DNA of 32,947 nt from a virus. Lineage: Duplodnaviria > Heunggongvirae > Uroviricota > Caudoviricetes. The notes below the pieces were generated by a model that worked only from the letters and a program-made list of their open reading frames with translations, did not search any database and had not been told where the DNA came from. How positions within the stretch are numbered: the stretch's first letter is position 1; each line of letters begins with the position of its first letter. Both the position numbers and the translations under genes were made by a program. Location of the stretch: the IMG/VR virus record IMGVR_UViG_2541047823_000003, one strand, 5' to 3'. This document shows, piece by piece, positions 17,899-25,157 of this stretch.

Positions 17899-19493
17899 CA
17901 GAATCCCTCCAGCATACGGGCCGCCTGACGACGACGGCGTGAGCTTGCCTTCACCGGCCCTTTGTTAATTTCACGGCTGGCGAAATACGCCAGCGCCAGT
18001 GCGATGGCTGAATCCCCGTGGCGTTTACCACCGTCAGCCTTTGCTTTTGAGCGTTGCTCCGGTACGCGGGGGACACCGTTCACCACCTGAACGGCCCGCA
18101 GGTCATCCAGTGTGTCTTCATCCTTTGGTAAGTCCACCAGGTTACCGTCTTCCAGTGCAGCTTTGACCGGAGGCATATGCTCCCGGTACCAGCCTTCGGT
18201 TGGCATCACCTGCTGAACCCGGCTGGAGCCGTAGCGCTGCATGGCGTATTCAGCCAGATAGGCACCATTACCACGGGCATCAAACGCTGCACCCAGCAGA
18301 CCGGGCAGGCCATCCATCAGATACCAGGTGATTTGCTCCTGCTGTCTGAACGGCACGTTACGCAGCTCCAGTACGAATGGCACGCGTCGTACCAGGTTCT
18401 TCTCCTGCAGCAGGGGATAGTCCACCGACAAATCACCGCTACGGCCAAAGTCGCGCCCCAGGAAAGAGCGGGCATCAGTGGGGAGTGCCTCCAGCAAGGG
18501 TTTCAGATACTCATCAAGCCAGTCCTGCGTCTCGCGGAAGCGAACCTCATCAGACAGCAGTTCATAACCTTCCTTGCAGGTCAGACGCAATACCGGCGTA
18601 TCAGCGGACATGCGGGACTCTATCAGGGCACGGGACAGCCAGGCACCGCCACCGTTGGCCGGAATACAGTCAAGCTCTTCGGATGCGCCGGCACCGTAGA
18701 ATTTGTACACCGATGCCATCCAGGCCTGCTCGGATGCCTCCGACCATTCCTTCCCGGTGCGCAGACAGACGCGCCGGAACAGCCCCTCAGATACGGCTTC
18801 CCGGAAAGTGATGCGATGTATGCTGCCTCCCTGACGTCCGGCACGGATATCCCCGATAAGCGTATTGAACGGATTGTCGTCACCGTCATGGGTGGAGATA
18901 ACGCGTACCTTTCCCCCCCAGATAAGCATCGCCAGCGCCGCTTTCAGCAGTTCGTCCAGTTGCTCATGGAACGCCGCTTCGTCGATAACAATAATACCCT
19001 GACGGCCACGCAGGTTAGACGGGCGGCTGGAGAGCGCAACAATACGAAAGCCGGAGTCAGGAAATTTGATGGTGTAAGTCTTGATGTGTTTGTCGTCGTC
19101 GTCCTCTTCCCAGAATCCTTCTTCAATTTCACTGGCCGCATAGTTGAATGCCCGTGCCCACATCGCACACGCCTGAATGTATTCGACGGTCATGTCCTGG
19201 TTATAAGCGATGTAATACACATTCATCCCGCCTGCTGGCGCAGAAGAGGCGGCGGTCAGTACGTTATCGGATGCCTCAGCCCATGTAATACCGGTACGAC
19301 GGCTCTTTTCTATCACCTTAAGCGGAGAGGTGTCTGCCACCCAGCGCTGCTGGTAAGGCAACAGAACGGGAGGGGCATCCAGCGCCGAGGTATCAGGCAA
19401 AACGGGAGCAAGGTTATTCCTCCCGTCCATGGGACTCATCCCTTCGGGGCCGCCGCCAGCGGCGTTTAAAATCACTCCGGATGATTTTGTCAT
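17898..19493 (-). CDS. Terminase large subunit (Mu gp28-like)
   Basis: 531-aa ORF preceding the portal gene, following the small subunit-like gene; start may be one of the downstream Met codons. Confidence 0.8.
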   Translation of the reverse strand: MTKSSGVILNAAGGGPEGMSPMDGRNNLAPVLPDTSALDAPPVLLPYQQRWVADTSPLKVIEKSRRTGITWAEASDNVLTAASSAPAGGMNVYYIAYNQDMTVEYIQACAMWARAFNYAASEIEEGFWEEDDDDKHIKTYTIKFPDSGFRIVALSSRPSNLRGRQGIIVIDEAAFHEQLDELLKAALAMLIWGGKVRVISTHDGDDNPFNTLIGDIRAGRQGGSIHRITFREAVSEGLFRRVCLRTGKEWSEASEQAWMASVYKFYGAGASEELDCIPANGGGAWLSRALIESRMSADTPVLRLTCKEGYELLSDEVRFRETQDWLDEYLKPLLEALPTDARSFLGRDFGRSGDLSVDYPLLQEKNLVRRVPFVLELRNVPFRQQEQITWYLMDGLPGLLGAAFDARGNGAYLAEYAMQRYGSSRVQQVMPTEGWYREHMPPVKAALEDGNLVDLPKDEDTLDDLRAVQVVNGVPRVPEQRSKAKADGGKRHGDSAIALALAYFASREINKGPVKASSRRRRQAARMLEGF

Positions 19494-19585
19494 GTGGCAA
19501 TCCCCAGAATCTCGCGACGAAGCGCCTGTACTGCGTCGCTTGACAGTCCCCCCTTACGGGCAATTTTCTCGGCGTTGCTGGCTGC

Positions 19586-20035
19586 CTACTGCGCTCTGGC
19601 CCGTACTTCAGACTGGAACTTTTTGAGGTTGACGGACGCGCGGGACAGCGTAGCCACATTCTTCGCCACCTTCGACAGCAGGGCCACGCGTTCTTTAGGA
19701 TCGACTTCGCCTTCTTCCGCCTCCTGCAACTGGACAATACTCTCGAACAGCTCGGTCTGAATAAGGGCTATCACAGCCTCCGAACGCGCATCCTGATCGT
19801 CTGCTGCGCCTTCGGTCAGCATGCGGGCCGCTTCTGTTGCCGCACGGATAGCACCATAGCGGCGCTCAATCTTCTGTCCATAGCGATGGATAGCGGATTT
19901 GCTGATGACGTACCCCCGCTCACGCAGCAGGGACTCCAGCTCGTTATACCCGCTGAAGCCGGATTCAGTCAGCGCCCGTTCAAGCCAGCGGCGCACGTCT
20001 TCCGGCAGCTTTTCTATTGTGCTGCGTCTGGCCAT
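19586..20035 (-). CDS. Terminase small subunit-like DNA-binding protein (Mu gp27-like)
   Basis: 149-aa ORF immediately upstream of the large terminase; basic N-terminus and acidic C-terminus. Confidence 0.55.
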   Translation of the reverse strand: MARRSTIEKLPEDVRRWLERALTESGFSGYNELESLLRERGYVISKSAIHRYGQKIERRYGAIRAATEAARMLTEGAADDQDARSEAVIALIQTELFESIVQLQEAEEGEVDPKERVALLSKVAKNVATLSRASVNLKKFQSEVRARAQ

Positions 20036-22045: not shown

Positions 22046-22396
22046 TTAAAGCCCCATCGCAACAGCCAGGCAGACCGCTGCAACAATCAGTGCACGGCGG
22101 ATTAACGCAGCAGAAAACACCAGGTGAAGGCCGGTCTGTACCGGGAAACGCCCTTCAGCCATCAGCCTGTCGTCATGTTTCAGGTACTGACCGGGACGGG
22201 CTTTGGGGAAGAGCGAACGGTCAAGCCAGTAACCCAGCACTGCTGCCAGCGTGATGAGTGCCAGCTTGTAGATCACAACAGGCAGCTGCTGTGGTGAGAC
22301 CAGAGCGATGGTGCCCAGCAACAGCACTGAGGTCAGCAGCCAGCCGCTGAGGCGAGGTTTTTTAACAGGGGGAATGAATTTTTTCAGGTTTTTCAT
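22046..22396 (-). CDS. Holin-like membrane protein, first gene of the late operon
   Basis: Track ORF 22046..22444; the internal Met (MKNLKKF...) at 22396 has a good RBS (aggagacacac before ATG); two predicted TM helices; immediately upstream of the endolysin. Confidence 0.5.
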   Translation of the reverse strand: MKNLKKFIPPVKKPRLSGWLLTSVLLLGTIALVSPQQLPVVIYKLALITLAAVLGYWLDRSLFPKARPGQYLKHDDRLMAEGRFPVQTGLHLVFSAALIRRALIVAAVCLAVAMGL

Positions 22397-22526
22397 GTGT
22401 GTCTCCTCGTTTGGTGGAGACAGCATCACAAATACAGGGCGCAAAGGATTTTAAAGCGCGTTAAGAGAGCCGGGGATACGGGATGTGCAGGATAAACGAT
22501 GAATTATTCACAGAGGAGAATACGAT

Positions 22527-23003
22527 ATGACGCACACACTGAATCCGGTCATCACTGTCACTGTGTCCGGTCCTGTGGGCAGCGGTAAAAGTTACGTACT
22601 GGCGCGGATAGAAGAGATGGTGAAACAGGAACTCGGAAACAGCGTCATTGTCGATGCTGCTGACGTGGAGAATGAGCGCCGTATGAATGGCGAAGATCTG
22701 ACGACCTGGCAGAAGCCACGGGGTGGCACAGTGATCAGGCTAGAGGAATACACGGGACAGGGCCTGTTGTCATACGGCGAGGAGCGTATCTGTCGGACGA
22801 ATGAGCTGCTGGATGTTATATGCCCCACGGGCCGGCAACCCTGGATACTGCCCGATGCACTGCATGCCACCATTGCGGCACTGATGACAGTTTACGATCA
22901 GGAGCTGCTCATGAAGGAGTTACGTAAACTCACCGGTCAGCCAACAGAATGTTGTTCGTCTCCGAAGTACGGCAAACAGGAAAACGCCCCGGATAATCCT
23001 TAA
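22527..23003 (+). CDS. Small P-loop NTPase/kinase-like protein, function unknown
   Basis: 158-aa ORF with GAGGAG RBS 7 nt upstream; Walker A at the N-terminus (VTVSGPVGSGKSYV) and a Walker B-like hhhhD (SVIVDAAD); plus strand, divergent from the late operon and convergent with the immunity-region operon. Confidence 0.6.
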   Translation: MTHTLNPVITVTVSGPVGSGKSYVLARIEEMVKQELGNSVIVDAADVENERRMNGEDLTTWQKPRGGTVIRLEEYTGQGLLSYGEERICRTNELLDVICPTGRQPWILPDALHATIAALMTVYDQELLMKELRKLTGQPTECCSSPKYGKQENAPDNP

Positions 23004-23015
23004 GATACCTCCTGA

Positions 23016-23038
23016 ACAGAAACAGCCCTGAAGGGCTG
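23016..23038 (-). terminator. Intrinsic terminator-like hairpin between the convergent genes
   Basis: CAGCCC-tgaa-GGGCTG at 23023-23038; on the minus strand it is followed by TTTCTGTT; sits directly after the stop of the glycine-zipper gene (23041) and 20 nt after the P-loop gene stop. Confidence 0.5.
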
Positions 23039-23040
23039 CA

Positions 23041-23424
23041 CTAAAAAAAGAAGTGTATTATTGCCCAAACAGCTATAACGATGATTCCCAGCCCAAGAGC
23101 CGATTCTAACTTATCTTTGGCAGTCATTTTTACTGTTGTAGCGGGCGCAGGTAAGTCTTGCTGCTGTGGATTTTCTGTTAGTTGTTTACGAGAAGAAACA
23201 TCGCCCCTATTAGTTTGCTTCATGTTGATTACAGATGCGTTATGGGCATTATCAGCAGCAATTGACTGAAGTTTTACAAAAGTTTTTGAATCTGTTTTAG
23301 CCAGAAGTAACCTATTTCCCGTAAACATTGCCTTAAAAGTGATAGTTTTTTTCGTCTTGTCCGCCGCACCAAGCAAACCTCCAATGACCAACCCTGCACC
23401 ACCAAAGATTAATCCACCAAGCAA
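23041..23424 (-). CDS. Glycine-zipper two-helix membrane protein (ORF as called from a TTG; reading frame continues upstream to ATG 23628 across an in-frame TGA)
   Basis: 127 aa; N-terminal glycine zipper (LGGLIFGGAGLVIGGLLGAA) and C-terminal hydrophobic helix (LGLGIIVIAVWAIIHFFF); the called start is TTG inside the zipper helix; upstream in the same frame lie a TGA (23506-23508) and a 40-codon ORF with AGGTGA RBS and ATG at 23626-23628; AT-rich. Confidence 0.5.
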   Translation of the reverse strand: MLGGLIFGGAGLVIGGLLGAADKTKKTITFKAMFTGNRLLLAKTDSKTFVKLQSIAADNAHNASVINMKQTNRGDVSSRKQLTENPQQQDLPAPATTVKMTAKDKLESALGLGIIVIAVWAIIHFFF

Positions 23425-23712
23425 ACCTGCGCCTGCCGCCTTACCTATACGGCTTTCCTCTTCACTATCCGCAAGTTCAATCGATAAAAGCTCTTCTTTC
23501 AGATTTCATACAATATTTTCAGGAAAGCCTTGTTTTGGTTTTTTGGCAAACACGATGGTACCGAACCCCATGCTTGCCCACCCTTTAGGAAAACTTCCTG
23601 CGATAACCTGAATCCCTGCCATGTTCATCACCTTTTACATTAAAATTTCAGAACGCAGCATGATGCCGCCTTTGTCTTTTTTCTGATCCCATGGTAATTC
23701 AGCTGTTATTTT

Positions 23713-24699
23713 CTATTTAAGAATAAAACGGTATTTACTGTCAGGAGTGCTTTGCTGATCAAGTAGCAGTGAACGACATGGAGCAGTCAAAACCCGAGCA
23801 TAACTACCATCAGGGCTTATGTTAATGTAACAAACCTTGCCCTTAACACTATAATTTTCGGGGACGGATGCCTTTGCTGATACAGTAAATTTAAGGGTAT
23901 GCCAGCCCGTTTTTTGCTTGTAGCTTGAAACCGAATGGAAATCATCTGAGTACTTATTTAACCCTGGAAACATGCTGCGCAGTGCGGGGATGGAATCTTC
24001 TATTATTTTATCGTTGGTTTTAATGTTAAAAACGCTGGTTTCAGTAGAAGCTACTGCTTTGGCATTTCCCCATTTACCAGCGAACACAATCATTCCCACG
24101 AAAAATATTGCTACAAGAACTAACACTCCCCCCAACACTACTACATGAGGCTTCCGGCTTCTGGTTGGTACAGTTGCGACTGATTTTGCACCGCTTTCCG
24201 ATGGAGGTGATAGAGTTTTACTCTCATCACGAATATTCAGCAGATCATCAAAATAACCAAACACAGCCTGCAACTGCTCTTTGTCTAGGCCTTTAAGATG
24301 GGTTGTACCGAAATGCTTCAGACAGTATCTGTCACGGTCAAGACGATACCCAGGGTCAGTAAGCGCCATTATTTTGCTGACCAGAAGATTACAGTCCTTC
24401 ATATTCTGGATCTGTTGTGCATATCTCTGAAGGATCTCAACCGCACCATGATAATCAGCCGCAGTCATTTCATTAACTGTTTTGGTATTAAGTTTCGTGT
24501 GGATCGTCATCCATAGCTCGCGCTTACTTTCCCCCAGATCAACCAATTCATCCATCAATCTGTGTAAATCGCGTTTTTGCAGCAACGAAATTGGTTGCTG
24601 GGCCGAAGGAAGTATGTCAGCAGAATAGTTATGAATGGTAACATCACCGCTGACAACGTTACCCACATCCCCGTTAACTGTTTGCTTCTCTTTACTCAT
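23713..24699 (-). CDS. Repressor-coupled single-pass membrane protein, function unknown
   Basis: 328-aa ORF whose ATG overlaps the repressor stop (ATGA, 24696-24699); cytoplasmic N-domain of about 185 aa, one TM helix (HVVVLGGVLVLVAIFFVGMIVFAGKW), C-terminal domain of about 120 aa with two Cys; AT-rich (sampled 60-nt lines give 33-48 percent GC). Confidence 0.6.
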   Translation of the reverse strand: MSKEKQTVNGDVGNVVSGDVTIHNYSADILPSAQQPISLLQKRDLHRLMDELVDLGESKRELWMTIHTKLNTKTVNEMTAADYHGAVEILQRYAQQIQNMKDCNLLVSKIMALTDPGYRLDRDRYCLKHFGTTHLKGLDKEQLQAVFGYFDDLLNIRDESKTLSPPSESGAKSVATVPTRSRKPHVVVLGGVLVLVAIFFVGMIVFAGKWGNAKAVASTETSVFNIKTNDKIIEDSIPALRSMFPGLNKYSDDFHSVSSYKQKTGWHTLKFTVSAKASVPENYSVKGKVCYINISPDGSYARVLTAPCRSLLLDQQSTPDSKYRFILK

Positions 24700-25157
24700 C
24701 TTCTCTTGGTATTTTTGTTCATTATTCCACCTGTTCCTATGGTTACGTTACCTTTGATAACATTCCCCAGAACATCTCCATGAATAACCTGTTCCGCCCG
24801 TTCTCTGGAGGAGCCAGTAGTCAAGGCCGACAAAACTGAACCTTTGACCTGTAATGGTGCCTGCCGGTAGTGCTGCAGTAACTCCATTTCATCACGTGAT
24901 AAAGTTATACCTGATGACTCCCCGGTAAGAATGAACTGTACATTGGCCCCAATTCTTGCAAAGGCTGCAAGTAACTCACCTCCGGGAACAGCAACCCCTC
25001 GTTCATATTTCCCCCACATTTCTCTTGAAACGCCACAAAGGGCTGCTACTTCAGCCTGCTTGAGTGATAACCGCGAACGCTCAGCTTTGAACCGCGACGC
25101 GCAAAGAGAATCAAAATTCACATAAACCTCATTGACAATGAGAACAATAGTTCTCAT
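24696..25157 (-). CDS. XRE-family helix-turn-helix repressor (prophage immunity repressor candidate)
   Basis: 153-aa ORF divergent from the early operon; HTH (LSLKQAEVAALCGVSREMWGKYERGVAVPGGELLAAFARIGANVQFILTG); C-terminal tail HGDVLGNVIKGNVTIGTGG; start codon overlaps the -10 of the early promoter. Confidence 0.7.
   Translation of the reverse strand: MRTIVLIVNEVYVNFDSLCASRFKAERSRLSLKQAEVAALCGVSREMWGKYERGVAVPGGELLAAFARIGANVQFILTGESSGITLSRDEMELLQHYRQAPLQVKGSVLSALTTGSSRERAEQVIHGDVLGNVIKGNVTIGTGGIMNKNTKRR

Follow-up and report, generated by a model that had tools for sequence, protein, structure and literature searches.

The gene considered here, at positions 22527–23003 on the plus strand, lies in a 32,947-nucleotide (nt) stretch of viral DNA (Caudoviricetes; IMG/VR record IMGVR_UViG_2541047823_000003), hereafter the window, and encodes a P-loop protein of 158 amino acids (aa). 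It is a genuine protein-coding gene under selection, and a backbone gene of enterobacterial BcepMu-like transposable phages, yet one that is non-essential to the prophage. Comparison of its relatives indicates a modular make-up, with a Walker-A mini-domain, a helical module and, in a long allele, a second helical module. We tentatively favour, while holding it a little less probable than not, the explanation that the product is a phosphate-ligand-binding oligomeric adaptor head with swappable helical docking modules and an accessory, possibly counter-defence, role.

The gene and its conserved mini-domain

The open reading frame (ORF) starts with ATG and carries GPVGSGKS as residues 15–22 (nt 22569–22592). 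A GAGGAG ribosome binding site (RBS; 22513–22518, plus strand) lies 8 nt upstream of the start codon, and a GAGGA-like site is kept at diverged homologous loci. The 158-aa plus-strand protein, the N-terminal Walker A and the strong RBS are thus all present as a first-pass annotation of this DNA, accurate in its coordinates, had described them. The ORF is far beyond chance: it matches the PHROG 3787 profile (E = 2.1e-107, 359 bits; residues 1–157 on positions 1–157 of 242), is identical to RefSeq WP_000149906.1, and shows a ratio of nonsynonymous to synonymous substitution rates (dN/dS) of ~0.2–0.35 against diverged alleles. PHROG 3787 is annotated as of unknown function, and the RefSeq product name is 'ABC transporter ATPase'. 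A literature search found nothing on this protein family.

When 1.84 billion representative proteins were searched with the profile, only 63 matched at E ≤ 0.001, and beyond the close family nearly all of these matches span positions ~1–75 only, in proteins that range from tens of residues to 364 aa. One 2018-aa match (P0054), a eukaryote-like Ig-repeat protein, was rejected as spurious, and a profile scan of genome contigs was swamped by generic SGPTGSGK matches. Judged by these alignments, the conserved unit is the N-terminal ~75 aa only. Stand-alone mini-domain proteins of 67–90 aa exist, and one locus (L036) encodes the head by itself, as an 88-aa protein, with an overlapping 161-aa ORF after it. 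At ~30% identity, G20 and K21 never vary, conservation of G15 and S22 is at least 90%, and W61 is nearly invariant; L72 and E74 are invariant in a 32-sequence alignment. As read from the sequence, aa 1–76 (22527–22754) would run in the order strand, GPVGSGKS, helix, strand, short helix, a loop with W61 and P64, and a strand ending in E74 (codon 22746–22748). This residue follows an h-x-L-x-E pattern (IRLEE, FKLEE, FVLHE), the strand being amphipathic and not fully hydrophobic, and D43 (in VIVD) is not conserved. The Walker A signature G-x4-G-K-[ST] is found between strand and helix, and the hidden Markov model (HMM) aligns it with the P-loops of ABC proteins, kinases, PilT, EF-Tu and UreG.

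The remainder of the protein (22755–23003) comprises a helical middle module and a low-confidence tail. The module follows the pattern W.LPDA.HA.IAAL..YDQ.L..ELRK and also occurs on proteins with unrelated N-termini (P0067, P0068). Across the family, the C-terminal parts form a mosaic of short helical modules, of which the long allele has a second. The mini-domain can also be preceded by other material, as in P0087, where a PG_binding_1 domain (E = 5e-15) stands before it. AlphaFold models of the window allele and of a 247-aa allele are confident at residues ~11–76 only, with a predicted local distance difference test score (pLDDT) of 85–93. Past residue ~76 they give helices at low confidence; in the window allele, pLDDT stays under 70 over this whole part and under 50 at residues 141–158, and the C-terminal tail is probably disordered.

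The first-pass annotation had proposed a minimal nucleotide kinase-like fold, and named zeta-toxin-like folds among those to look for. Pfam yielded a single match, to AAA_30, whose 17.9 bits fall short of the cut-off of 27; NCBIfam kinase models matched at 12–15 bits, against cut-offs of 102–263, over the P-loop only; no Zeta_toxin or kinase family HMM matched at E ≤ 0.01; and a structure search returned no fold match to a kinase or to any other fold. ABC_tran did not match the window protein at E ≤ 0.01, and relatives scored 17–18 bits against a cut-off of 25, over positions 5–52 of 137. The protein has no ABC signature, Q-loop or H-loop, and its PDB alignments to ABC proteins stop at about position 48. 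Among defence models, PADLOC gave only SngB and mad8 (13.4 bits, E ~0.01), again on the P-loop segment. Matches to PDB and NCBIfam profiles are confined to the strand/P-loop/helix segment of diverse NTPases, the best PDB profile matches including 6c2u (E = 1e-3) and 9jix (E = 2e-3 to 2e-2; positions 6–73). A complete three-layer alpha/beta P-loop NTPase core of five or more strands was not found. With the Pfam, NCBIfam, PADLOC and PDB matches all sub-threshold and limited to the P-loop segment, and a conserved unit of ~75 aa, a kinase, zeta-toxin or ABC identity was rejected; a kinase-like or zeta-toxin-like fold is unsupported, and the RefSeq ABC name is wrong.

In the explanation that we favour, the mini-domain would be too small for a complete P-loop NTPase core, and would instead act as an oligomer that binds a phosphate-bearing ligand (an NTP, another nucleotide or a nucleic acid) and catalyses little or nothing by itself. 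Laboratory-made polypeptides with a beta-(P-loop)-alpha element behave in this way, as oligomers that bind NTPs, polyphosphate and single-stranded DNA (bioRxiv 10.1101/2020.07.30.228619). The mini-domain would thus act as a constant adaptor head, while the exchangeable helical modules would dock onto partner proteins. The role served would be an accessory one, in host takeover or counter-defence, around phage DNA and nucleotide transactions.

Alleles and spread of the gene

The homolog in Escherichia phage PhiKM (XRL29432.1) is 242 aa long, is 92% identical over residues 1–157, and occupies the same slot beside the holin gene. The window gene is a short allele of this family: it ends at position 157 of the 242-position PHROG 3787 architecture, without the C-terminal helical module. 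In a large protein database, alleles of 242/247, 158, 141 and 182 aa are found, most copies being of 242–247 aa. The 158-aa forms fall into three clusters at 97, 87 and 83% identity, every one ending in PDNP, and the fairly common 182-aa alleles have residues 51–124 deleted. At the DNA level, the breakpoint between short and long alleles lies at ~22990–22997, and the three short alleles have CCGGATAATCCTTAA in common, then diverge straight after the stop codon, next to different modules. Truncation of the gene by the immunity module of the window was considered and rejected, since diverged 158-aa alleles with another downstream module share the last codons and the stop. The 158-aa form is an established allele. 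The left edge of the cassette lies at ~22465, as homology with the prophage of strain 8178, which has no P-loop gene, ends at ~22464, after GGATTTTAAAGCGCGTTA.

Several truncated or internally deleted alleles (141, 158 and 182 aa), the lack of the gene in some prophages, and the nonsense mutations and IS3 insertion of the host prophage would all fit a decaying remnant with no present function, whose Walker A is the fossil of a larger ATPase. However, where dS exceeds ~0.2, dN/dS is 0.19–0.36 across the whole gene, alike in both halves and also between short alleles, including two diverged 158-aa alleles with the same stop codon. The Walker-A residues and E74 stay invariant at ~30% identity, and stand-alone 67–90-aa versions are maintained in unrelated phages. 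Decay is for these reasons the least probable of the explanations considered.

Among 5426 complete E. coli genomes, 635 carry the lysis cassette, and 569 of these 635 carry the P-loop gene, ~107 at 99% identity or more (short allele) and ~435 at 90–95% (long allele). The slot divergent from the holin is also kept in distant BcepMu-like loci (L036 and L039–L041, with TerL 38–83% identical), even though TerL is only ~38% identical in L039–L041 and the P-loop homolog only ~30% identical in L036. By contrast, a DUF2441 gene takes the slot in 8178-type prophages (three of three examined, from a class of 27 genomes), and Klebsiella phage KP12 lacks the P-loop gene, yet has dam. The gene is therefore dispensable. 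Most relatives have a longer P-loop gene followed by a same-strand 71-aa gene and dam, so that the description of the gene as an orphan standing alone fits the allele and module of the window but not the family at large.

A link to the adjacent membrane genes was likewise rejected when co-occurrence was checked. The gene form tracks the downstream module among IMG/VR loci, but across genomes the P-loop gene and the membrane module each occur alone. Of 126 genomes with the 328-aa membrane gene, ~99 also carry the P-loop gene as its short allele, which the class of 27 genomes, judged from three of them, lacks; ~460 genomes have the P-loop gene without the membrane-gene module. There is hence no obligate association.

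The first-pass annotation had also suggested a moron, which on this reading would be expressed from the prophage and encode an NTP-dependent toxin, a small kinase or a factor for superinfection exclusion. The gene is indeed dispensable, occupies the variable central part of the prophage with a Walker A motif, its own RBS and a hairpin after the ORF, and is intact within an otherwise decaying element. Its composition, however, is that of the backbone: GC content is 54.3%, with 0.60 at third codon positions (GC3), equal to the values of the late and early operons (~55% GC backbone). Moreover, 90% of related E. coli prophages carry it, and the slot is kept down to a TerL identity of 38%. Variable presence together with backbone composition therefore marks an accessory gene, not a recent add-on. 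None of the Zeta_toxin, kinase and PADLOC families is matched above threshold, no kinase fold matches, the conserved ~75-aa unit is too small for a kinase core, and no antitoxin-like partner adjoins the gene. Its upstream region has no sigma-70 consensus promoter, and homologs are also found in phages that seem to be lytic, for which lysogenic conversion would be pointless. Nothing points toward toxin or exclusion roles, and we consider a moron distinctly unlikely.

Two observations on individual loci may be recorded here. In long-allele prophages, as at L003, a 134-aa minus-strand gene (PHROG 2266; 3432–3836) convergently overlaps the 3′ end of the P-loop gene (2728–3456, plus strand) by 25 nt; some long-allele loci (L011, L012) are without the 134-aa gene. 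For KP12 (L049, OM835952.1), the taxonomy line reads Vequintavirinae, as against a Mu-like/BcepMu-like gene order with transposase, IclR-type regulator, holin-lysin and a Mu gp29-like protein; probably the record was assigned to the wrong taxon, or the clone is a prophage that was co-assembled.

Neighbourhoods and candidate roles

Every readable homolog context, whether annotated or gene-called, is a phage or prophage, those of the high-GC metagenomic homologs L042–L047 being uninformative under crude ORF calling; a homolog is detectable in three of 50,697 phage records. In three Pseudomonas-type lambdoid prophages, the gene fills the accessory slot that separates the lysis genes from HNH-terminase, and one of the three, L053, has an Acb2/Tad1-family gene ~250 nt from the P-loop homolog. 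On two large phage-like contigs (L006, L007), the homolog lies among small ORFs with an Acb2/Tad1-family gene within ~4 kb, and L006 also has Sequestin and DNA ligase nearby. Vibrio phage 1.101.O encodes an 82-aa homolog between thymidylate synthase and DHFR, 11 nt from each, with N6-adenine methyltransferase and ribonucleotide reductase near it. Lar lies near the homolog of a metagenomic siphovirus, and dam belongs to the same rightward unit in most BcepMu-like variants. None of the neighbouring ORFs that share the slot has a Pfam family. This neighbourhood theme of methyltransferases, Lar, Acb2/Tad1 and nucleotide enzymes, along with mosaicism, dispensability and restriction to phages, favours an accessory/counter-defence or DNA/nucleotide role and argues against a toxin, a kinase, a lysis factor or a late regulator. 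Killing the host or switching on late genes is less likely than an accessory role.

The same neighbours could also mean that the protein is a helper in DNA or nucleotide metabolism, for instance a nucleotide-binding subunit, that works with Dam, thymidylate synthase/DHFR, ligase or primase and is not aimed at defences. The arrangement in 1.101.O, the presence of dam in the rightward unit, and the DNA ligase, primase and SNF2 genes near other homologs all agree with this. However, the window-type allele occurs without dam, in KP12 dam is present but the P-loop gene is not, small ORFs often interrupt the nucleotide-metabolism clusters of large phages without any functional link, and mosaic, fast-shuffling C-terminal modules would be unusual for a metabolic subunit. 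A metabolic helper is thus unlikely.

Adjacency to the lysis genes raises the further idea of a factor that modulates holin or endolysin action, or the timing of lysis. The gene adjoins the holin gene in all BcepMu-like loci and in the Pseudomonas prophages L035 and L052, and P0087 joins the mini-domain to PG_binding_1. Yet the gene is transcribed in the direction leading away from the lysis genes, the sequence when read by eye shows neither a transmembrane segment nor a signal peptide, and the periplasm would offer a Walker-A domain no NTP. Homologs in lytic phages lie away from lysis genes, and in lambdoid phages the gap between lysis genes and terminase is a general accessory slot. We regard a lysis role as very unlikely.

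A regulatory role at the divergent late promoter, as co- or anti-activator of Mor-dependent transcription or as controller of an immunity/late switch, can be weighed against the region between the holin and P-loop genes (22397–22526). Late promoters of Mu have a good -10 element and no -35 element, and bind their activator around -30 to -55. Here, a CTTTTAAAG motif is conserved in nine of nine aligned intergenic regions, including those of phages with ~65% holin identity. It contains TAAAAT on the holin strand (22448–22453, minus), which on the pattern of Mu late promoters would be the -10 of a Mor-dependent late (lysis) promoter. GCAGGAT (22487–22493), identified by alignment, is a candidate part of the activator site; it lies at about -46 to -52 from the putative late transcription start, inside the 62-nt upstream region of the P-loop gene. 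A sigma-70 consensus promoter was found on neither strand of 22397–22526. By analogy with Mu, CTTTTAAAG and GCAGGAT together look like a Mor-dependent late promoter placed back-to-back with the P-loop gene.

The ATG of the P-loop gene lies only ~86 bp from this putative start, and the candidate activator motif falls within its own upstream region, as might be expected of a regulator. However, the late-promoter motifs are present even in prophages without the P-loop gene, so that the gene is missing from similar prophages that retain them. Homologs occur in unrelated phage types, and family searches detected no DNA-binding motif; in Pfam, no Mor-family domain matched the P-loop protein. The lineage already has a Mor/C-family activator, encoded apart from the P-loop gene in the E. 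coli O7:K1 CE10 prophage (CE10_RS06835) and in PhiKM, and also has GemA. The earlier suggestion of a late-gene regulator is made unnecessary by this activator and was rejected on that ground; such a role is highly improbable.

Several points weigh against the adaptor explanation itself. The fold of the mini-domain is a prediction, and DSSP gave no beta-strand in either AlphaFold model, although residues 8–14, 40–44 and 67–73 look like strands in their sequence pattern and in alignment with P-loop NTPases. The strands may form only with a partner subunit. Some relatives have G-K-N in place of G-K-S/T, and the deletion in the 182-aa allele removes E74, so that strict nucleotide chemistry may be dispensable, or such alleles may be dead; catalysis is therefore not to be assumed. 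No PADLOC defence family matches, PADLOC modelling defence systems and so not covering anti-defence proteins. The neighbourhoods are heterogeneous, the window allele has no adjacent dam, and the window prophage is itself decaying. The functional part of the explanation draws on motif conservation and guilt by association, and would be correspondingly provisional. A bolder form of the adaptor explanation, which seems doubtful to us, would make the mini-domain an autonomous natural half P-loop and the smallest natural Walker-A domain family, found only in phages, with a site completed by oligomerising, and so a natural counterpart of the P-loop prototypes made in the laboratory. It would then be the head for swappable targeting modules that act, for example, by sequestering nucleotide immune signals or poisoning oligomeric defence NTPases.

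The surrounding prophage and wider meaning

The window is a defective BcepMu-like transposable prophage. The region matches PhiKM (genus Bcepmuvirus) and, over the 10 kb compared, is identical to the CE10 chromosome except for two single-nucleotide polymorphisms (SNPs); the CE10 element is a ~37-kb transposable prophage within the lom gene of another prophage. As annotated in CE10, internal stops interrupt the TerS-like gene (DUF3486 / Mu gp27; 19490–20035, minus) and the gp25/W baseplate gene (2333–2680, minus), and therefore production of particles is probably impossible. In addition, an IS3-family transposase (~32348 to the window end at 32947) breaks the early operon between a DUF2786/DUF7168 gene and the small pre-GemA/Mor genes. 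One of the two SNPs, at 19361, is synonymous and lies in TerL. The other, at 23507, changes codon 39 of a 193-aa gene (PHROG 12025; 23041–23622, minus) from TTA (Leu) in CE10 to TGA in the window; this leaves a 127-aa ORF with a TTG start, the intact CE10 version being WP_000907412.1.

To the left of the P-loop gene stands the divergent PF13272 holin gene (22046–22396, minus), followed by SLT transglycosylase and spanin-like genes; the late operon begins with these genes. On the other side, the 193-aa gene is convergent, and a 328-aa gene and a 153-aa helix-turn-helix (HTH) repressor gene follow on the same strand. Beyond the repressor, the plus-strand early operon encodes Ner-like, IclR-type HTH, DUF3102, rve transposase and MuB-like AAA proteins. 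This layout bears out the earlier placement of the gene as divergent from the late operon, convergent with the immunity operon and a member of neither.

The holin 5′ leader (22397–22432, minus) contains a conserved hairpin, GUCUCC...GGAGAC (-14.2 kcal/mol, z = -2.5), in which the holin Shine-Dalgarno sequence is base-paired to a complementary stretch upstream, and the GGAGACAGCAT element is kept in diverged phages. The hairpin may serve translational control of the holin.

The junction with the AT-rich immunity module (23004–23040) contains a GC-rich hairpin (23022–23039) between the two convergent stop codons, which the first-pass annotation had taken as a shared terminator. The hairpin is there, but its T-run is on the minus strand only (GCAGCCCTTCAGGGCTGT-TTCTGTTC), the plus-strand side continuing as ACTAAAAAAAG; it is therefore a canonical intrinsic terminator of the immunity operon only, and not of the P-loop gene. 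GC content drops here from 54% to 42%, the shift coinciding exactly with the 3′ end of the P-loop ORF, and the 193-aa, 328-aa and repressor genes have 42–46% GC and GC3 of 0.35–0.40. Since the P-loop gene matches the backbone in composition, the immunity module is the foreign part. That module (23004–25157) consists of the repressor and two genes read as membrane proteins (PHROGs 10002 and 12025); elsewhere in the population, its place is taken by a Dam/118-aa-repressor module or by a variant that contains DUF2441. For superinfection exclusion, the two membrane-type genes, which are co-transcribed with the repressor, make stronger candidates than the P-loop gene.

Set beside known systems, the protein resembles kinase-GTPase-type P-loop NTPases (adenylate, cytidylate and uridine kinases, UreG) and ABC domains in its N-terminal strand, G-x4-G-K-S/T and helix, aligned over ~4–48. 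The conserved acidic E74, at the end of a later predicted strand, may correspond to a Walker B residue. P-loop prototypes (6c2u; Tawfik laboratory) and the de novo ATPase PL2x4_2 (9jix) likewise place a beta-(P-loop)-alpha element in a very small context. However, these are engineered sequences built on a consensus motif, so that the resemblance is to an idealised motif and not one of homology, and oligomerisation of the phage protein is suggested by analogy. Like zeta toxins and small toxin kinases, it has a Walker A motif and is encoded on a mobile element, but it differs in size and predicted structure, is a backbone gene, and has no epsilon-like antitoxin gene. Temperate-phage proteins of the Bro-N/KilA-N/ANT type combine a constant N-terminal domain with shuffled C-terminal modules, exist in split and fused versions, and are variably present in accessory regions. 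The constant head and swappable tails seen here resemble this arrangement, although there is no sequence similarity, and the head here is a P-loop element and not a DNA-binding domain.

About one in ten complete E. coli genomes carries this gene under the misleading names 'ABC transporter ATPase' and 'KAP family NTPase', an annotation that is corrected here. P-loop proteins as a kind are already known; what is new is a small domain family, restricted to phages, that is represented in none of Pfam, NCBIfam and the PDB. Even if the mini-domain were to bind no ligand, the locus would still document how Mu-like prophages exchange modules at their late/immunity junction and so make alternative alleles of a backbone gene. 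If it does bind a phosphate ligand, alone or as an oligomer, it would be a natural test case for the origin of P-loop enzymes from short beta-loop-alpha units, and might reveal a new phage means of interfering with nucleotide-based host processes.

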